Assembly: GCA_047638435.1 (NCBI GenBank)
Contig: JBLILW010000002.1
Coordinates: 1-34,359 of the forward strand
DNA: 34,359 bases
From: Urechidicola sp.
GTDB lineage: Bacteria; Pseudomonadota; Gammaproteobacteria; GCA-001735895
Direction of reading: 5' to 3'
In this document: positions 16,940 through 24,821 of the stretch, in pieces
Layout: each line of letters opens with the position of its first letter
How positions within the stretch are numbered: position 1 is the first letter of the stretch
Notes under the pieces: generated by a model
What the model was told of the DNA's origin: nothing
Database searches by the model: none
What the model saw: only the letters and a program-made list of their open reading frames with translations
Translations under genes and position numbers: made by a program

Positions 16940-18334
16940 ATGACTTCAAGTTTAATAACCGTATCTTATCTGGCGGCAGCTATCTTGTTCATTTTGGCTT
17001 TGGGTGGGTTAAAAGATAACCAGTCTGCCAGACGAGGAAACCTATATGGCATGATCGGTATGACCATAGCCATACTGGTAACAATCAGTGCCTTTGTCAC
17101 TCAAAACCACAATATATTAATTGTGGTAATGTTGATTGGCGGAGTCTTTGGATTCGTATTGTCTCGCCGTGTCAAGATGACCCAAATGCCCGAACTGGTG
17201 GCGATATTACATAGTCTGGTCGGTTTAGCGGCTGTATTGATAGGCTTTGCTAATTTCCTCGATCCCAGTGCTAATTTGACTGGCGTCGAAAAGACAATCC
17301 ATGAAATCGAAATTTTTATCGGCATTTTTATCGGTGCGCTGACATTCACTGGTTCCATCATTGCCTATGGCAAACTCAGTGGCATGCTTGGTGGACGTCC
17401 ACTCATATTGCCTGCTCGACACTGGCTCAACCTGGCCATGCTGATTGCCGTCGTGGTGGTTGGCGTTTTGTTTGTTGGAGCACAAAATCATGCCGACGCC
17501 TTCACCTTGTTGATGGTTATGACAATCATTGCGTTGTTGCTTGGCATGCACATGGTAGCGGCCATTGGTGGTGCTGATATGCCGGTCGTTATTTCGATGT
17601 TGAATAGCTATTCGGGTTGGGCAGCAGCAGCGACTGGTTTCATGTTGTCGAATGACCTATTAATAGTTACAGGTGCATTAGTAGGTAGCAGTGGCGCGAT
17701 TTTGAGCTACATTATGTGCCGTGCCATGAACCGTAATTTTGTGAGCGTTATCGCAGGTGGATTTGGTTCTACGAGCGGCTCTAAAAGTACAGCGTCAACC
17801 GATGTTCAGGGTGACGTCACTGAGATCGATATTGCGGAAAGTGCACAACTTTTGAATGATGCAAAGCAGGTTATGTTTATCCCTGGTTATGGAATGGCGA
17901 TGTCGCAGGCACAACATGCGGTTTCCGAAATATCGAAAGTTCTGTTGGCTAAAGGTGTGAATGTGCGGTTTGGTATTCATCCGGTTGCGGGGCGTATGCC
18001 AGGCCATATGAATGTCTTACTGGCTGAAGCTAAAGTACCCTATGACGTCGTATTCGAAATGGACGAAGTTAATAGTGACTTCCCTAATGTTGATGTGTCA
18101 GTGGTAATTGGTGCCAACGACACGGTTAACCCATCAGCACAGGAAGATGATGACAGCCCTATTGCAGGTATGCCAGTGCTTGAAGTATGGAAAAGCGAAA
18201 TCACAATAGTTTTGAAACGTGGCATGGCTGCCGGTTATGCTGGTGTCGATAATCCATTGTTCGTTAAGGACAACACCAGGATGCTATTTGGTGACGCCAA
18301 AGATAGCCTGGATTTGCTAATCAAGGCACTATGA
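16940..18334 (+). CDS. pntB: NAD(P)+ transhydrogenase subunit beta
   Basis: 464 aa. A polytopic N-terminal half is followed by the dIII domain ([47 protein letters not shown]). Confidence 0.95.
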
Positions 18335-18339
18335 TCCTA

Positions 18340-18547
18340 GGGCACCTCTAAAAATGCACTTTTTTTGCGATTGACGTCGTGGCCCCGATTCTTGGCAGCT
18401 CCGTACCGGTTCGCCAGCCTGGTCGATCCTCATGCACAACGTACACTCTGGTTCTGCGTGCGGTGCATCTTTAGCATTTATTGCAATGGATGGCATGTAT
18501 GCTGTTTTTGCAGGAACAAAAAACAATCATTATTTTTAGAGGCACCC
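18340..18547. repeat. copy A of an intergenic element bounded by inverted repeats (MITE/REP-like)
   Basis: The ends are GGGCACCTCTAAAAAT (18340..18355) and ATTTTTAGAGGCACCC (18532..18547). TCTAAAAAT/ATTTTTAGA form a perfect 9-bp inverted pair. The core at 18392..18470 aligns with 23898..23976 at roughly 80% identity (my hand count: 63 of 79 positions, one indel). Confidence 0.6.
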
Positions 18548-18606
18548 TTTAACAAGGATAATTAAGCTATTATATATTAGGGTATCACTTATAGGACAAT
18601 ACCTAG

Positions 18607-19236
18607 ATGTACGACGGAGAAAAACTTAATAGCGTTTCCCATTTAATCGGCACCGCATTGTCACTGGTTGGCATGGGGGCATTACTGACGGTAGGTGTTC
18701 AGTCGAATAATCCCTGGGTTCTCGGTAGTTTTGTGGTATTTGGTTTTAGTATGGTGTTGCTCTATTCAATGTCAACCTTGTATCACAGCTTCGAGCCAAA
18801 GCCGCTTAAGCGGCTATTTAAACTATTCGACCATGTGTCCATCTACTTGTTGATCGCAGGCACTTACACACCCTATATGTTAGTCAGCCTTAGAGACGGA
18901 AATGGCCCAATGATATTGGGCGTGATCTGGCTGCTCGCGATTATCGGTATTTTGAGTGAAATATTTTTGTCTGGCCGTTTAGTCAAGGTTGGGCAAATGG
19001 TCATTTATTTTGCGATGGGATGGGCCTGTGTTTACGACTACGCCAGCTTGGAAGCGGCAATACCCGCTGCTGGCGTACAGTGGCTTAAATATGGTGGTAT
19101 TGCCTATAGCCTAGGCGTGGTCTTTTACATTCTCGATAAAGCCAAAAAGTTACCGCATGCCCACGGTATCTGGCATTTTTTTGTGATCGCAGGTAGCGCT
19201 TGCCATTTTGTTTCTGTCATCGGTTACGTGCGATAA
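18607..19236 (+). CDS. trhA: hemolysin III / PAQR family membrane protein
   Basis: 209 aa with 7 predicted hydrophobic segments. Motifs seen: NSVSHLIG, STLYHS, DHVSIYLLIAGTYTPY, HGIWHFFV. Confidence 0.85.
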   Translation: MYDGEKLNSVSHLIGTALSLVGMGALLTVGVQSNNPWVLGSFVVFGFSMVLLYSMSTLYHSFEPKPLKRLFKLFDHVSIYLLIAGTYTPYMLVSLRDGNGPMILGVIWLLAIIGILSEIFLSGRLVKVGQMVIYFAMGWACVYDYASLEAAIPAAGVQWLKYGGIAYSLGVVFYILDKAKKLPHAHGIWHFFVIAGSACHFVSVIGYVR

Positions 19237-19355
19237 GCTTTCCATTACAATGATTAAATTAGTCATCAAAGGGATATTGCTGATGATAGGGAACATATTT
19301 TATGAAGCCCTGTCTCACCTTACTCATAACACCGTGTATTCATTAGGAGATGTCA

Positions 19356-19820
19356 ATGAGACTCAGTCGAATTAAGCGTTGGAGCTTGGTTTTTGGAATA
19401 TTGTTGTCTACTTTATGGCCTTCTTTTGCGATGGCGTCAGAACCTGAAATTTATACTCGGTTCTTCAGCAATCTTGCGCTTGAGGGTTACGACACTGTCG
19501 CTTACTTCGACCAAAATAAACCGGTGGAAGGCCAATCGAAGTATAGTTATGAGTATAAAGGTGCAGTATGGCAGTTCAGCACACAGGAAAATCTTGACAA
19601 GTTTATAGCAATGCCTCAAGAATACGCCCCCCAGTATGGTGGTTATTGTGCTTGGCTGGTGGCTGGTGGTGATACTGCTAAAGGCGATCCTCGGTATTGG
19701 AGTATCGAAAATGGCAAACTGTACCTAAATTATGACGCCGATATACAGAAAAAATGGCTGTTAGATAAATCTGGTTTTATTAAAAAAGGTGATGCTATGT
19801 GGCCTAGTGTTTTGGATTGA
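19356..19820 (+). CDS. secreted YHS-domain protein (Cys form of the 'YHS domain-containing (seleno)protein' type)
   Basis: A signal-peptide-like N-terminus (..LLSTLWPSFAMA), then LEGYDTVAYF, YKGAVWQFSTQENLDKF, PQYGGYCAW and GKLYLNY. I prefer the ATG at 19356, which is 6 nt after AGGAG, over the ATG at 19350. Confidence 0.7.
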   Translation: MRLSRIKRWSLVFGILLSTLWPSFAMASEPEIYTRFFSNLALEGYDTVAYFDQNKPVEGQSKYSYEYKGAVWQFSTQENLDKFIAMPQEYAPQYGGYCAWLVAGGDTAKGDPRYWSIENGKLYLNYDADIQKKWLLDKSGFIKKGDAMWPSVLD

Positions 19821-19884
19821 GCTGCCTTAAAAGAAAATTTCCGTTCATACCGCAACTTTCAATGATTGATGATGATCGACCAAC

Positions 19885-20715
19885 ATGCATATTAGGCTAC
19901 TGTTAATTTTTTCGTATATTTATTACTGCGTCAGAATAAAGACCAATCCTGCCCGCTATTTCCAGCTCAATGCCCCATTCTTTAATCCAAGTAAGGGCAT
20001 ATTTTCTAAACTCGATATCGACCGCCTCATACCTCAGCGTTGGCGCCTGCGTCAAAGTGCTGATAATGGCCTGGTTAAAGATTTCCAGTTCCCTGTATTC
20101 GTAAAACCAGAATGGGGGCAAAACGCTTACGGGATTCGTCGCGCGGATTCAGAGCAAGAGCTGAACGATATTCGTCATCAAACAGCGGACAGTATAATGC
20201 CGCGCATCATTCAGGAAGCTGCGACAGAGGCTCGGGAGTTTGAAGTGTTCTACATATTGTCGGCTGCAGATGAAACAAAGTCTGCAGTGCTAACCGTGAA
20301 CGAAGCCTTAAATATCACAAAGACAGATTTCCCAATCAATAGCATTAATAATTCAAATACGTTTTATCGCGAATTGACTGCCTCGCTTAATGAAGAACAG
20401 CTGAGTGCAATTTGGGCACATATGCGCGCATTCGGTCGTTTCGGAATCTCACGAGTGGGACTACGATCGGATAGTATTGATGCATTGGTGAATGGCGATT
20501 TTCATGTCATCGAAATTAATCTTTTTGTTCCTATGCCAATCAACCTGTTAGATCCCGATAAAACTTTGAAGCAACGAGTGTCGGCAATACTCAATACGAC
20601 TTGGCACTTGGCGCAAATCACCAGGCACATTCCCAAAGACCAGGTAGCGCAATCAGTATTCTTCAAGAAATGGTGGGTCGCTCGAAAAGTTAAAATGTTG
20701 CCACAAACCCCATAA
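19885..20715 (+). CDS. ATP-grasp-like protein (divergent)
   Basis: 276 aa. FPVFVKPEWGQNAYGIRRADSEQEL, RIIQEAATEAREFEVFYI and DFHVIEINLFVP have the order and spacing of the ATP-grasp phosphate-binding, linker and C-terminal metal-site strands. I could not place it in a named subfamily. Confidence 0.45.
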   Translation: MHIRLLLIFSYIYYCVRIKTNPARYFQLNAPFFNPSKGIFSKLDIDRLIPQRWRLRQSADNGLVKDFQFPVFVKPEWGQNAYGIRRADSEQELNDIRHQTADSIMPRIIQEAATEAREFEVFYILSAADETKSAVLTVNEALNITKTDFPINSINNSNTFYRELTASLNEEQLSAIWAHMRAFGRFGISRVGLRSDSIDALVNGDFHVIEINLFVPMPINLLDPDKTLKQRVSAILNTTWHLAQITRHIPKDQVAQSVFFKKWWVARKVKMLPQTP

Positions 20716-20799
20716 GCTATTTCCTCATAACCGACTTCCTCGCCAGCCACTAACATTAAGCTGGCGCAAAACCTACCCTCTGACTGGCACGATAACCCC

Positions 20800-21708
20800 A
20801 TGAAATGGCTGAAAGTTAAAATCTACCAATGGATTAGTCAACGCTATATGCATGGCTGTAGTAGTTATAATGATATTGATGTTCGACGCAGTTGCCGATC
20901 TAAAGAGCAGGGTCGTGCAAAATTTGCAGAGGGTGGCTTACCGCATGCTCAAGGCCTCATATTTTTCAGCCCATTTAAAGCCATTAACTTCGCAAAGGAA
21001 CATGGTTTTCCACTGGTGATCAAACCGAACGTGAGTGGGTATTCTCGTGGCAGTTATTTCCCGATCAATAATTATAAGCAGTTATGGAAGGCTGTTTTTC
21101 TGGCTAAAATTTGGTGGCCGACAACGGTAGTCGAGCAATATTTGAAGGGCGAAAATTATCGAGTGGTAGTGATAGATGGCAAGATCATGTCGGTCATTCA
21201 ACGCTACCCCCCATTTGTGATCGGCAATGGTAAAGATTCAATCTTAACCCTGATAGAGTCAGAAAACGCAGTGCGTGAAGAAATGCAACTATATGCTGGT
21301 ATGTTCCCGATTCAAAAAAATCAACGGACCGCCGATCACCTGAAAAAGCAGAGGCTTAGCTTCAAATCAATACCCGCTAAGGATGAGCATATCGAACTAT
21401 ATTTTCGAGTCGCTTTAGCACCTGGTGGGATCGTACGAACCATTGATAAAACCACCATTCACGCCGATAACTTGGAGCTGTTTCTGGACACCCTAAAACT
21501 ATTTAAGGCGAATATACTGGGCGTCGATATCATCTTTGAAAATAGCATCAAGCAAAGCTATAAAGACCAAAAATGCATACTGTTAGAAGTCAATTCCAGG
21601 CCATATCTTAAAATGCACGATTATCCACGCTACGGTAAAAAAGAAGATTTATCAGTCTACTACAGCGAACTTGACCAGCTCAATATTAGTCAGTCAGATA
21701 CCTTCTAA
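20800..21708 (+). CDS. ATP-grasp ligase, cyanophycin-synthetase-N-terminal-like / RimK-like
   Basis: 302 aa. GFPLVIKPNVSGYSRGS, VVEQYLKGENYRVVVIDGKIMSVIQRYPPFVIGNGKDSILTLIESEN, GGIVRTIDKTTIHADN, NILGVDIIFE and ILLEVNSRPYLKMHDYPRYGK parallel the cyanophycin synthetase ATP-grasp module. No Mur-ligase or GNAT domain is attached. Confidence 0.7.
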   Translation: MKWLKVKIYQWISQRYMHGCSSYNDIDVRRSCRSKEQGRAKFAEGGLPHAQGLIFFSPFKAINFAKEHGFPLVIKPNVSGYSRGSYFPINNYKQLWKAVFLAKIWWPTTVVEQYLKGENYRVVVIDGKIMSVIQRYPPFVIGNGKDSILTLIESENAVREEMQLYAGMFPIQKNQRTADHLKKQRLSFKSIPAKDEHIELYFRVALAPGGIVRTIDKTTIHADNLELFLDTLKLFKANILGVDIIFENSIKQSYKDQKCILLEVNSRPYLKMHDYPRYGKKEDLSVYYSELDQLNISQSDTF

Positions 21709-21731
21709 CGTGTTTTATAAGCGTACCTTAA

Positions 21732-23018
21732 GTGAGTCTTAGCCCCACGCGCTTGTTCTATCAATTTGCGGGCGCTCACTCCCTTCTTATCGGATTACTA
21801 CCGTTTTATTTGCCAGCGTTAATGTGGCAGAACGGATTAACGCTGGTTGATATATGCTGGTTTATTGCGCTTAATGGCGCTGGGTATTTACTCACGCTTT
21901 ATGCTTGGGATCGTATCAGGCAGCGCCTGGGCTGGCGTAGGGTCATTGCAGTTTCATTTATCCTCGAATTGGCTGTCGTGGCATCAATTGTGGCTGATAA
22001 TTCACTCTCAGCTATTCACCTCATCGCCCTCTTAAACGGTGCCTACGGCTGTTTTTTCTGGATGTCCCAACGGTTACTGTTTGTGCAGTGTACCGGCAGT
22101 CATAACACAGGCAATAAATTTGGTAACTTTCAAATAGTGGTGATGGTACTGCTTAAAGTTGGCATTTTGACAGGAGGTTACCTTTGGGAAATGTGGGGTG
22201 CTGTGAGTGTATTTTGGGTCACCTTAGGCCTAGTGGTTCCTGCGGTTGTATATCATCTTTGTAGCCACCTGCCGGCTAACTTGAGCGCGTCCATCGAGCT
22301 CCCGTTAGGGCTAAAAAAGATGATCACCTATCGCGACAAGAATGGATCGCGGCTGGTTTTCTTTGGCGATGGATTGTTCCTGTTTGCGGAAAGCTATTTA
22401 TGGGTAATAACGCTTTATTTTATTTCAGGGCAAGACTTGTCAATGCTTGGCGTGCTGGTGGTTTCCTTGTCGATCTTGTTAGCCATTTTATTCTATGTCA
22501 TTAAAAACACGCTCGATCACCTTAACCCGCAGCGAGTGTATTTTCTGGCAGTACTTGGCTATTGTCTATCATGGTGGTTACGTGGACTAGTGGATGCTGA
22601 AGGCAGTGATTTCTGGATATACCCGATGGTTGTTGTGATCGGCTTTTTCACTGCGTTTTTTCGTCTGGCTTTTAATAAACGCTTCTTTGATTTGTCAAAA
22701 CAAAAACAGACGCATGATTATATCGTCATCAAAAGTTATTACTCTCAGCTCGGCGTCTGCGTCTTCTATGGTTTGATGGGCATGGCAGTGTTGATCCTTT
22801 CAGGGTCAGTATTAACCCCATTGCTCAGCAGCTTGAAAGATCCAGTAGCTATCTTGCAATGGTGCTACTGGATACTCACGCCCGCCGCGTTAATCTATTT
22901 GTTATATCGTACGACAGGCGCTGAGATAGGCGATGAGCCAGAGAATGAGCCAAGGCAAAAGGATGCGCAGGAAACGTCTATACTGGTTGGGACTGAGCTC
23001 GAAAAGACAACCAGTTAA
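21732..23018 (+). CDS. MFS-like 12-TM membrane transporter
   Basis: 428 aa with about 12 hydrophobic segments. An MFS motif-A-like loop (YAWDRIRQRLGWRRVI) follows TM2. The start is GTG, 23 nt after the preceding ATP-grasp gene. Confidence 0.55.
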   Translation: MSLSPTRLFYQFAGAHSLLIGLLPFYLPALMWQNGLTLVDICWFIALNGAGYLLTLYAWDRIRQRLGWRRVIAVSFILELAVVASIVADNSLSAIHLIALLNGAYGCFFWMSQRLLFVQCTGSHNTGNKFGNFQIVVMVLLKVGILTGGYLWEMWGAVSVFWVTLGLVVPAVVYHLCSHLPANLSASIELPLGLKKMITYRDKNGSRLVFFGDGLFLFAESYLWVITLYFISGQDLSMLGVLVVSLSILLAILFYVIKNTLDHLNPQRVYFLAVLGYCLSWWLRGLVDAEGSDFWIYPMVVVIGFFTAFFRLAFNKRFFDLSKQKQTHDYIVIKSYYSQLGVCVFYGLMGMAVLILSGSVLTPLLSSLKDPVAILQWCYWILTPAALIYLLYRTTGAEIGDEPENEPRQKDAQETSILVGTELEKTTS

Positions 23019-23487
23019 TAATAAACAGTATTAGGCCAAGAACTAAAATCGAAAGGGCGGCATAAAATAACGACCCACCATCACTCTTACCTTCATGTAA
23101 TACTTCGACACCAAGCGGGCTAACCAGATGAAAGAATACCGCGCCAGCCATAATGCCGGCAGCCATTAACCCACCCAACCCATGAGCCATCACACGATAA
23201 GGTCTGTCTGCTGCGAAATTCATTTTGTTCAATATCCAAAACACAACCGGTGACAGTAAAATAACCGAGGTGAACAATTCGGCACTGCCAATAACAACAG
23301 CACCATGTTCAGAAAAGAGCCCGCCAGCAGTATCACCAATGAAACCTTTTAACCACTCTCCGATGGTACCGAAAATATGCTGTGTATCAGGATGACCCGA
23401 AAACTTATAAGGTATGGATGAAAGGAAAACCTTTGCCGCCCATAATGCGATAACCCAGCTGACAATGGCGATTATTATTTTCTTCAT
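22978..23487 (-). CDS. small 4-TM membrane protein, DoxX-like
   Basis: 169 aa. SSIPYKFSGHPDTQHIFGTIGEWL followed by hydrophobic helices resembles DoxX-family proteins. Its 3-prime end overlaps the convergent MFS gene by 41 nt. Confidence 0.45.
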   Translation of the reverse strand: MKKIIIAIVSWVIALWAAKVFLSSIPYKFSGHPDTQHIFGTIGEWLKGFIGDTAGGLFSEHGAVVIGSAELFTSVILLSPVVFWILNKMNFAADRPYRVMAHGLGGLMAAGIMAGAVFFHLVSPLGVEVLHEGKSDGGSLFYAALSILVLGLILFIINWLSFRAQSQPV

Positions 23488-23551
23488 TTTGTTTGCCTTT
23501 ATTATTTTGAATGAGAATTAGTGATAAAATTGTACATGAATTATTAGAAGT

Positions 23552-23818
23552 TCACTCGGCCGGACTTAAGACACTGCCTTGAATTAATAATTCCTTCCGA
23601 CGACGGCTAAGCTGTTTAATCTCATATTCTCGTTTGCTGGCACTACTACGTGAATGCCCCGGTTCTTGGTAAATTACTTTGACAGGTCTTCGGCCGTTAA
23701 AATACTTCGCGCCCAGAGTGCTTGAACAATGCTCATTAAAACGCCGTTCAACATCGGTAGTGATGCCAGTGTAGTAAGAGTTGTCGCTCGCTTCAATCAT
23801 GTAAACAAACCAATTCAT
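23552..23818 (-). CDS. GIY-YIG nuclease-superfamily small protein (YhbQ/UPF0213-like)
   Basis: 88 aa. WFVYMIEASDNSYYTGITTDVERRFNEH, then KVIYQE and ASKREYEIKQLSRRRKELL. Confidence 0.85.
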   Translation of the reverse strand: MNWFVYMIEASDNSYYTGITTDVERRFNEHCSSTLGAKYFNGRRPVKVIYQEPGHSRSSASKREYEIKQLSRRRKELLIQGSVLSPAE

Positions 23819-23883
23819 TTAGAGGGCATATTGTGTGGATTAAAGTCTATGATACCTGACATGATATGGTACAACGAATAACT

Positions 23884-24013
23884 GGGCACCTCTTAATTGG
23901 TAGCTCCGTGCTGGTGTGCCAGCCGGGTCGATCCTCATGTACTATCGTACATTCCGGTTCTCCGCGCGATACGTCCTTGCACTAACGAAAAATCGCTATT
24001 CTTAGAGAAGCCC
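23884..24013. repeat. copy B (shorter) of the intergenic element bounded by inverted repeats
   Basis: The ends are GGGCACCTCTTAAT.. and ..ATTCTTAGAGAAGCCC. The core is homologous to copy A. It lies between the divergent GIY-YIG gene and the frameshifted PEP-mutase-family gene. Confidence 0.6.
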
Positions 24014-24037
24014 AGAAACCAGTAGCGGAGAAGATCA

Positions 24038-24821
24038 ATGCCGTCAGAACAGTACCGTAAAGGACAGATATTCAAGCAGCTACACCAAACAGATGGGCTA
24101 TTTGTCATGCCTAATGCTTGGAATGCAGGAAGTGCACGACTGCTCGCCGCTGAAGGCTTCAAGGCAATCGGTACCACCAGCGCCGGCATCGCATACGAAT
24201 TAGGCGTTCCTGATTATAAAGGCCTGCTGAGTAGAAGCGCAGCACTGGAAGAAGCTCAGCGTATCGCGGCCAGAATCAATATACCAGTCAGTGTCGATGC
24301 AGAAAATGGCTATGGAGATGAGCCAGAAACGGTGTCACAAAAAATTCGACTTGTTGCTCAAGCTGGTGCTGTCGGCGCTAATATCGAAGACTATGCAATC
24401 ACTAACCAATATAAGCTGTATGACTTCGAGTTAGCGGTTGAACGCATCAAAGCGACCAGCGAGGCAGCCGACTCGCTCGATATTCCATTCACATTGACCG
24501 GCCCGAGCCGAATGCTACCTAATCGGTCATCCAGATCCATTTGCCGAATCGGTTAAGCGAGCCAATGCCTATCAGGAAGCAGGTGCTGATTGCATGTTTG
24601 TGCCAGGAGTCAAGGATGTCCAGACCATCGCCGCACTGGTGAAAGAAATCAATAGCCCGATCAATGTTGTTATGGGGTTAGTGGGCGAACCGATATCGGT
24701 CAAACAACTGGCTGATCTGGGCGTCAGGCGAGTCAGTTTCCGTGGCTGCCTGGCGTGCGCAACTTTCGGACTGATTCGAAAAGCCGCACAGGAAATTAAA
24801 CAACAAGGCAGTTTCGAATAG
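24038..24821 (+). pseudogene. isocitrate lyase / PEP mutase family gene (2-methylisocitrate-lyase/carboxyPEP-mutase-like) with a +1 frameshift
   Basis: Frame 1 reads ..FVMPNAWNAGSARLLAAEGFKAIGTTSAG..VSVDAENGYG..GANIEDY..DIPFTLTG, then nonsense up to the stop at 24554..24556. The family sequence continues in the +1 frame from 24504: RAECYLIGHPDPFAESVKRANAYQEAGADCMFVPGVKD..PINVVMG... Deleting one C from the CCC run at 24502..24504 restores a single ORF of about 260 aa. Confidence 0.75.

Follow-up and report, generated by a model that had tools for sequence, protein, structure and literature searches.

A recurrent two-ligase ATP-grasp module with an MFS transporter in marine Gammaproteobacteria and recoded bacteria

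Organization and conservation of the module

We analyzed a 34,359-nucleotide stretch of DNA from Urechidicola sp. (positions 1 to 34,359 of contig JBLILW010000002.1, assembly GCA_047638435.1), referred to here as the window, and within it a set of genes for two ATP-grasp ligase-like proteins, L1 (ORF1) and L2 (ORF2), and a transporter of the major facilitator superfamily (MFS), M (ORF3). An original prediction made from the letters of the DNA had described these as three plus-strand open reading frames (ORFs) separated by gaps of 84 and 23 nt; the coordinates, the gaps and the peptide motifs quoted for the proteins were all found (Table 1). The N-termini of all three ORFs match those of their homologues, so the start codons are right. 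The prediction treated the trio as the unit. The three genes are co-conserved, but the unit is larger, comprising four to five genes with Y, a secreted YHS-domain protein, and X, a membrane protein, as conserved partners. Y ends 64 nt upstream of ORF1, and X is convergent to ORF3, overlapping its 3' end by 41 nt. The GC content is an unremarkable 42–48%.

Table 1. Genes of the module and their positions in the window.
Gene	Position	Strand	Basis
Y, secreted YHS-domain protein	19350..19820	+	NF041384 154 bits, Pfam YHS 38.6 bits
L1 (ORF1), divergent ATP-grasp ligase	19885..20715	+	276 aa; Dala_Dala_lig_C and fold model
L2 (ORF2), stand-alone CphA G-domain homologue	20800..21708	+	302 aa; TIGR02068 150 bits
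M (ORF3), MFS transporter	21732..23018	+	428 aa, GTG start; MFS_1 48.5 bits
X, four-helix membrane protein, putatively DoxX-like	22978..23487	-	169 aa; invariant His/Asp/Glu cluster

A genome scan with one genome per species yielded 39 loci, from Amphritea, Neptunomonas, Endozoicomonas, Cocleimonas, Arenicellales, Acidiferrobacterales, Poriferihabitaceae and Nitrincolaceae-like metagenome-assembled genomes (MAGs). The order L1-L2-M is held in 76 complete loci (35 from genomes and 41 from metagenomes) that span several gammaproteobacterial orders, and was found in every locus long enough to contain it. The genes of this core commonly overlap, with ATGA-type 4-nt and 1-nt overlaps. The recurrence of the arrangement is far beyond chance. 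Identity within the L2 family is 56–90% across orders; L2 and X each show about 60% identity between orders and about 50% to their counterparts in recoded candidate-phyla bacteria.

These distant counterparts came from a profile search with the ORF1 family, which recovered proteins of 576–581 aa in which ORF1 and ORF2 are fused, the C-terminal half being 51% identical to ORF2. In the contigs that encode them, TGA stands in frame where a conserved Gly is expected, at 14 sites of the fusion and 6 of the X homologue, indicating that the organisms use genetic code 25, the code of Gracilibacteria and Absconditabacteria. The order at the fusion locus is X, the L1-L2 fusion and then M, which overlaps the fusion. 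The presence of the module in code-25 bacteria indicates that the four-gene core is portable across very distant bacteria. Because natural fusions exist, L1 and L2 probably form one complex. The original prediction of two different ligases with a transporter thus stands in part: both proteins are ATP-grasp enzymes and an MFS protein accompanies them, but they probably act as one complex and not as independent stepwise enzymes.

In the code-25 loci (L042:5467-8921; also L043 and L044) the X, fusion and M genes lie beside genes for type IV secretion system pilin-like proteins and a ParE toxin pair. A simpler relative of the module was also found, consisting of a single ORF1-like ligase with a CphA-type omega insert plus an MFS protein. 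A 560-aa stand-alone Glu_synthase-like flavin mononucleotide (FMN) protein is encoded at L042:8922-10607 and at L045:72-1748, 69% identical between the two loci; in both its gene adjoins MFS/ligase genes, in differing orientations. This protein was considered as a universal partner and rejected, being adjacent only in the code-25 locus and one simpler locus; no orthologue is present in the window's genome.

The module is a patchy accessory trait. It occurs in 3 of the 19 species of the window's genus. An even sampling of the class, with 401 genomes from 320 genera, placed it in 10 genomes of 9 genera. A search of the plasmid database PLSDB did not find it, matching only the true cphA of Rhizobium plasmids. 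The window's organism is an uncultured gammaproteobacterium of sea ice and seawater, and the stretch is represented at a word share of 0.3–0.99 in 24 ice and seawater metagenomes. Other carriers come from sea ice, seawater, sponges and corals, and include coral and sponge associates (Endozoicomonas, Poriferihabitaceae) as well as psychrophiles (Colwellia, Psychromonas). Neptunomonas japonica DSM 18939, Amphritea balenae JAMM 1525 and Colwellia psychrerythraea 34H are carriers available in culture. One sea-ice metatranscriptome contains short contigs identical to Y, L1, L2 and X, all four of which are likely expressed in that habitat; co-transcription of the trio in this organism is presumed. 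Two MAGs labelled 'Acidimicrobiia' and 'Polaribacter' (L001 and L004) include contigs in full synteny with the window from pntAB through MoxR, with proteins 80–93% identical, and these contigs are probably mis-binned. Existing annotation calls each component of the module 'hypothetical' or, wrongly, 'cyanophycin synthetase'.

We also examined the region for regulatory features. There were no Rfam matches at E<=1 within positions 18000-24500, and thus no riboswitch or other RNA leader. Promoter and terminator scans gave sites no more frequent than in shuffled sequence, with no intergenic terminator, and the sequence upstream of the operon showed no box of the Fur, Zur or CueR type. The PADLOC library of defence systems gave no match. 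In Amphritea and Neptunomonas (L005, L007, L009-L013, L034, L036) a direct repeat, TTTCAG-N5-TTTCAG, followed by ATTCAAAATATA, lies about 100–150 nt upstream of the YHS start; the repeat resembles a response-regulator site and is not present in the window's clade.

Proteins of the module

The two ligases were assessed from profile searches, structural models and alignments. ORF1 matches Pfam Dala_Dala_lig_C at 28.3 bits (cut-off 24) from residue 51 onward. Its AlphaFold model, built with 30 homologues, has a mean predicted local distance difference test score (pLDDT) of 88.4 and a predicted template modelling (TM) score of 0.87. A Foldseek search of the PDB with this model placed D-Ala-D-Ala ligases (Ddl) on top at a probability of 1.0 and a TM-score of about 0.5, with 420 matches at E<=0.001 and approximately 225 of some 320 Ddl residues aligned. 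Residues K74, Q110, E118, E120, R190, E210 and N212 are invariant among the 30 homologues; the roles assigned are nucleotide binding for K74, the hinge for Q110 and E118/E120, the acyl phosphate for R190 and Mg binding for E210-x-N212. L1 lacks the usual N-terminal pre-ATP-grasp (substrate) domain and has short helices instead. The earlier description of ORF1 as a divergent ATP-grasp protein is upheld by this fold and these residues, which together point to L1 as a catalytically competent enzyme of this class. A recent paralogous origin of L1 and L2 was ruled out (hhalign probability 1.3%).

ORF2 had been described as a stand-alone ATP-grasp module close to the cyanophycin synthetase CphA, with no Mur-ligase or GNAT part attached, and this description proved accurate. 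It matches the cyanophycin synthetase model TIGR02068 well under the cut-off of 850 bits and over model positions 213-462 of 862 only. The match starts at residue 34, the N-terminal pre-ATP-grasp domain being missing. By phmmer, ORF2 aligns with CphA2 (7ta5) and TeCphA1 (7wac) at E ~1e-28. Lower scores were obtained against the ATP-grasp module of GshF (NF002688, 99 bits, cut-off 425) and N-acetylglutaminylglutamine synthetase (TIGR03103, 74 bits, cut-off 569).

Residue roles in L2 were transferred from TeCphA1 through the phmmer alignment. In TeCphA1, K220 and K261 bind phosphates, R309 the acyl phosphate, and D431, E450 and N452 bind Mg (PMC9427784). All six are kept in L2, as K35, K75, R121, D243, E263 and N265, and are invariant in a 25-sequence alignment of the family. 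The incoming Asp is read in TeCphA1 by R323 at its beta-carboxylate, by R458 at its alpha-carboxylate and by N394 as a second reader of the side chain, and E215 reads the Arg side chain of the primer (PMC9427784). The equivalent of R323, R135, is invariant in L2, and that of R458 is K271, which is invariant among the 25 sequences and replaced in 7 copies of a wider set of 86. Three other positions are not kept: N394 is replaced by Ala or Ser (A205), E215 by Arg (R29) and H267 by Tyr or Phe (Y81), the last as in GshF. Because these three cyanophycin-specific contact residues are replaced, ORF2 is not expected to be cyanophycin-like in substrate. Its sequence places ORF2 in the CphA-G/GshF sub-clade, as a competent carboxylate-amine ligase and not as a cyanophycin synthetase; the unit that it adds probably still bears an acidic side group. 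Elsewhere in the same genome (G000, contig C90:4349-5107, L041) there is a 946-aa frame, 30% identical to ORF2, which is probably a genuine full-length cyanophycin synthetase beside the stand-alone G-domain homologue.

ORF3 matches Pfam MFS_1 above the gathering score (cut-off 33.4 bits) over residues 18-323, spanning most of the model, and is an MFS protein as had been proposed. The original prediction gave it 12 transmembrane segments; a crude hydropathy scan gave 8 strong peaks at a stringent cut-off. Among subfamily models the sole match was TIGR00880 at E 0.005, a weak likeness to drug/H+ antiporter-type transporters, and a PDB sequence search with ORF3 gave no match. Residues R114, D213, E220, D262, R284, R311, K316, D320 and K334 are invariant, the code-25 homologue included.

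X belongs to a family of 887 homologues, every one annotated as hypothetical, and its conservation equals that of ORF2. Invariant residues are Y27, K28, H32, D34, T35, H37, E70, H120, H131, D136 and S139. The AlphaFold2 model (pLDDT 92) shows a bundle of four membrane helices, for which the best non-artificial Foldseek match was NACHO/TMEM35A (probability 0.94, TM-scores 0.49/0.59, E 0.41); the other fold matches were mostly designed or ferritin-like helical bundles, so that only NACHO, which we take to be a member of the DoxX-like group, is plausible. The window's X does not match Pfam DoxX or DoxX_2, and 1 of 25 homologues does so at E 1.7-1.9. Marginal matches to a ZIP metal-transporter model were found for 9 of the 25 homologues (best E 7e-4). 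X is the first gene of the operon in most other lineages and is inverted in the window's clade, where it still adjoins the rest of the module; that the neighbourhood outlasted the inversion speaks for a functional link. Seeding a metagenome scan with X alone gave 80 loci, with ligases or MFS genes beside X in 52 of the 58 that were informative. Nine loci (L092-L094, L101, L102, L107, L110, L123, L125) hold X homologues that are about 60% identical to that of the window and free of ligase and MFS genes; on one side of them is a gene for a FleQ-like sigma-54 activator or an FlgM-like gene, and on the other a small heat-shock gene of the IbpA type.

Y matches NF041384, 'YHS domain-containing (seleno)protein', a family in which other members carry selenocysteine. 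It is predicted to be secreted, and according to Pfam YHS is a putative metal-binding domain. Y is present in 52 of the 76 complete cores, in three arrangements relative to the ligases, and its single Cys (YGGxC) is invariant in 64/64 copies. PDB sequence searches with Y, as with the DinB and NRDE proteins described below, were uninformative. The window's own genome (C158:3671-4090) has another YHS paralogue, less closely related (about 35% identity), and such second copies are also found at L013:10258-10728 and L036:11209-11670; the one in Neptunomonas comes after a gene for a small secreted protein that bears a CxxCH haem-binding motif. In a close relative of the window (L001:4591-5016; L2 90% identical) the YHS gene matches in four fragments across frames and is probably a pseudogene or an assembly error. 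Immediately before the YHS gene of L134, at L134:5260-6430, are genes for an extracytoplasmic function-type sigma factor and for a 209-aa protein that may be an anti-sigma factor.

Accessory genes and co-variation at position 271 of L2

Accessory genes were counted over the 76 complete cores, and their exclusivity was assessed in the 401-genome sample. The most frequent is a gene for a DinB-family protein, which lies beside M in 31 cores in either orientation; the orthologue subgroup to which it belongs (E ~1e-35) is confined to module carriers. An NRDE/TANGO2 (Ntn-hydrolase-like) protein is encoded in 17 cores. Six cores have, between X and L1, a gene for a VTT-fused pyridine-nucleotide disulfide oxidoreductase closest to the MerA, RclA and glutathione-reductase types, and in 6 a glutathione S-transferase (GST) gene is nearby. 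One module-linked DinB gene (G237:C53:15679-16182) has an in-frame TAA.

The clearest pointer to sulfur chemistry came from five loci (L062, L074, L078, L134, L137), in which a gene for a group-II pyridoxal phosphate (PLP)-dependent decarboxylase is inserted between X and L1. A gene for a type-I cysteine dioxygenase (CDO) cupin follows it in four of these (L062, L074, L078, L134). The insertion in L062 is so compact that its genes touch or overlap X, one another and L1. The in-operon cupin matches Pfam CDO_I at 29.5 bits (cut-off 23) and keeps the substrate and catalytic motifs, namely Y58/R60 with the substrate Arg (R60), HxH and S153-H155-Y157, seen in L134 and L062 as SYVRS/YSRT, IHGH/VHGH and SLHFYS/SLHIYS. 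L134 has a stand-alone VTT/DedA protein in place of the MFS protein. Together, cysteine dioxygenase and cysteine-sulfinate decarboxylase (CSAD) produce hypotaurine. The selectivity triad of the decarboxylase is W/S/C, that of CSAD reportedly being F/S/Y. Of the 401 sampled genomes, 3 have an orthologue of the decarboxylase (at least 54% identity), and each of them is one of the 10 carriers of the module, a co-occurrence for which we calculate a chance of about 1e-5. One of these copies is 1.27 Mb away from the module and adjoins a CDO gene, and the neighbours of such unlinked decarboxylase/CDO pairs are housekeeping genes only.

The L2 proteins of these lineages differ at position 271, the counterpart of the residue that reads the alpha-carboxylate in TeCphA1. 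This position is Lys or Arg in 79 of the 86 family members and Ala or Gln in 5/5 copies from CDO-plus-decarboxylase lineages. In the L2 tree the five Ala/Gln copies fall into two separate clades, and among the other 81 copies two unrelated ones carry Asn or Glu. R135, the reader of the acidic side group, is unchanged across the family. Hypotaurine is a sulfinate with no alpha-carboxylate, so a basic residue at 271 would be dispensable for its binding. On the simplest reading of these alignments, L2 of hypotaurine-making lineages would no longer need the alpha-carboxylate contact, and K-type L2, such as that of the window, would take the corresponding alpha-amino acid, aspartate or cysteine sulfinate. 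Position 271 is thus a predicted one-residue specificity switch between aspartate or cysteine sulfinate and hypotaurine. Residue 60 of L1 was considered as a marker for presence of the decarboxylase and set aside, the correlation being partial.

Proposed function and comparison with known systems

The explanation that we favour, to which we assign a probability of roughly 0.45, is that the two-ligase module builds and exports a small acidic or sulfinate amide for use in envelope chemistry. According to this proposal L1 and L2 would act jointly in the cytoplasm, probably as a complex, each activating a carboxylate as an acyl phosphate and then coupling it to an amine, to give a small di- or tripartite amide from primary metabolites. 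L1 would most likely make the acyl donor, and the CphA-G-like L2 would extend its carboxylate by an amino compound whose side group is acidic. In window-like lineages this compound would most likely be aspartate or something similar to it, such as cysteine sulfinate, and in lineages with CDO and the decarboxylase it would be hypotaurine. M would export the product. The original prediction had allowed for export of the product or uptake of its precursor; export is preferred here, uptake being the less probable. Outside the cytoplasm the product may take part, alongside X and in diderms also Y, in envelope chemistry of the sulfur/redox or soft-metal kind, a role that we infer from the DinB, GST, disulfide-reductase, CDO and Cys/Sec partners. 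The module as a whole is proposed to be self-contained and horizontally mobile.

Several observations weigh against this explanation. The proposed product and the ligase activities are deduced from sequences and models, and the direction of transport by M cannot be read from its sequence. Neither the window's MAG (74% complete) nor a 92%-complete congener contains CDO, the decarboxylase, DinB or NRDE, so the link to sulfur rests on other lineages. In 6 of the 58 informative loci X occurs without ligases or MFS, near flagellar regulators or ibpA. No operator motif upstream of the operon is shared across lineages, the conservation there being lineage-specific. The metatranscriptome contigs span no gene junction, none falls on M, and carry-over of DNA is possible. 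Co-variation at position 271 is also imperfect: L137 has the decarboxylase yet keeps Lys at 271, as does G080, in which a distant decarboxylase and CDO are encoded elsewhere. Finally, GshF has no equivalent of R458 and nonetheless binds glycine, an amino acid with an alpha-carboxylate, so loss of Lys271 is no proof of a decarboxylated substrate.

Much of the same evidence can be arranged around other products. The module might make a cysteine-containing low-molecular-weight thiol, a di- or tripeptide resembling glutathione put together by the two ATP-grasp enzymes, that is exported to keep the periplasmic Cys/Sec protein Y and other envelope targets reduced, with DinB and GST as S-transferases and the VTT-fused flavoprotein as a disulfide reductase. 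The score of L2 against the GshF module and its GshF-type Tyr/Phe in the P-loop are consistent with a thiol, as are the single invariant Cys of Y, the carriage of the module by code-25 bacteria and the recurrence of three enzyme classes of the thiol toolkit as accessories across lineages. We consider a thiol unlikely, given that an in-operon CDO destroys the cysteine thiol and so points to sulfinates, that the invariant R135 suits an acidic side chain, and that the VTT-reductase is also found unlinked in the window's genome. Nor would such a thiol replace glutathione, because congeners with the module have a normal gshB and the window's MAG has gshA (577 bits). A role of the module as a gshB replacement was rejected on the same grounds, only 3 of the 19 species of the genus carrying the module. 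No gshB above the cut-off was found in the window's 74%-complete MAG, and all but one of its congeners have a clear match, one or two as contig-end fragments only; the absence in the window's MAG is probably an assembly gap. A small acidic metallophore, with X and Y handling the metal or its complex at the envelope, would draw on the putative metal-binding YHS domain, the weak ZIP matches of 9 of the 25 X homologues together with the invariant His/Asp/Glu cluster, and the resemblance of the in-operon flavoprotein to MerA and RclA types; MFS exporters are usual in siderophore clusters, and the patchy distribution fits an accessory trait. We rate a metallophore as quite unlikely, since genes for a receptor or for TonB-dependent or ABC uptake are linked to the module in none of about 120 loci, no operator of the Fur, Zur or CueR kind is apparent, the ZIP matches are marginal and no metal-resistance genes are nearby.

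Alternatively, transport could run inward, the MFS protein importing taurine, hypotaurine or a peptide from algae or an animal host for conjugation by the ligases into a compatible solute, a storage compound or a detoxified form. Most carriers have neither CDO nor the decarboxylase, so that the amine would come from outside or from general metabolism, and they live in sea ice, seawater, sponges and corals, habitats in which solutes of the taurine/hypotaurine type are abundant; the ATP-grasp part of N-acetylglutaminylglutamine synthetase, which L2 resembles, would also fit such a solute. Import leaves the secreted Y and the membrane protein X unexplained, however, and L134 makes its own precursor with the MFS protein replaced by one of the VTT/DedA type. 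The likeness of M to drug/H+ antiporter-type exporters is weak and favours neither direction. We regard import as distinctly improbable. Most improbable of all is that the ligases modify a protein or ribosomal peptide, in the manner of RimK, TTL or the graspetide enzymes, or make a cyanophycin-like polymer, even though L2 is related to RimK and CphA and ATP-grasp enzymes do such jobs elsewhere. A search for a precursor gene of a graspetide or other ribosomally synthesized and modified peptide found no conserved small ORF, and in most loci the genes overlap, abut or lie less than 100 nt apart, with no space for one. The Mur-ligase and N domains used for cyanophycin are absent, the primer-reading E215 is reversed to Arg, polymers are not exported by MFS proteins, and the genome has its separate 946-aa CphA-like ORF. 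The dedicated decarboxylase and CDO point instead to a small-molecule building block.

We can also envisage a more far-reaching outcome, which is doubtful: that the module defines a new class of small molecules for export. These would be short, acidic peptides ending in an Asp-like or sulfinate unit (cysteine sulfinate or hypotaurine), made by a heteromeric or fused pair of ligases without N domains, and would serve with X and Y as a diffusible, sulfur-based redox or soft-metal buffer. If this were true, it would constitute a second portable redox system of the envelope beside glutathione, common to marine Gammaproteobacteria and recoded candidate-phyla bacteria. A sulfinate or other sulfur-bearing peptide would be a new player in marine organosulfur cycling and envelope redox biology, and would provide the first functional context for the widespread YHS (seleno)protein and for the X family, putatively DoxX-like. 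Bioactive dipeptides, osmolytes, storage polymers and cofactors are all known to come from pathways built on ATP-grasp ligases. The new elements of this analysis are the fusion found in recoded bacteria, the definition of the unit by five genes, the active-site map, the decarboxylase, CDO and DinB accessories, and the predicted switch at residue 271.

The set had not been matched to a described pathway in the original prediction, and our comparison agrees: literature on such a gene set was not found, and no characterized cluster is alike. The module lacks the defining features of cyanophycin synthetase, GshB/GshF, N-acetylglutaminylglutamine synthetase and graspetide systems, and does not belong to any of them. 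L2 aligns over its whole length (core, lid and omega insert) with the G domain of CphA1/CphA2 (7wac, 7lg5, 7ta5; E 1e-28) and keeps all catalytic residues, the Arg that reads the side-chain carboxylate and a basic alpha-carboxylate position. It differs from CphA in having neither the N nor the M domain, in the replacement of N394, E215 and H267, and in being paired with a second, unrelated ATP-grasp protein, an MFS protein and the putatively DoxX-like X. GshF (3ln6, 3ln7), which adds a single residue to a dipeptide at its C-terminal carboxylate, belongs to the same ATP-grasp sub-clade and shares the Tyr/Phe in the phosphate loop, but L2 has no GshA-like domain, keeps a basic residue absent from GshF, and occurs in carriers that retain gshA and gshB. 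Ngg (TIGR03103) has an ATP-grasp part of the same sub-clade and joins two amino-acid units into an osmolyte dipeptide; L2 scores far below its cut-off, and the module has no GNAT domain and no AsnO partner. The hypotaurine/taurine route of bacteria and animals shares the CDO motifs and the group-II PLP decarboxylase, here embedded in a ligase/exporter operon, with the W/S/C triad in the decarboxylase; its genes are absent from the window's own lineage.

In pathway logic the module most resembles the systems for bacilysin (BacD/BacE), tabtoxin (TabS/TblF) and rhizocticin (RizA/RizB), in which one or two ATP-grasp ligases make a di- or tripeptide that a dedicated MFS protein exports, and the L-amino-acid ligase structure 3vot is among the Foldseek matches of L1. 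Those pathways use three-domain ligases of approximately 400–470 aa together with warhead genes, whereas the module has a pair of ligases without N domains, no warhead genes, and X and Y in addition. The closest enzymes are therefore the CphA G domain and the GshF module, and the closest pathway logic is that of the L-amino-acid-ligase clusters with an MFS exporter.

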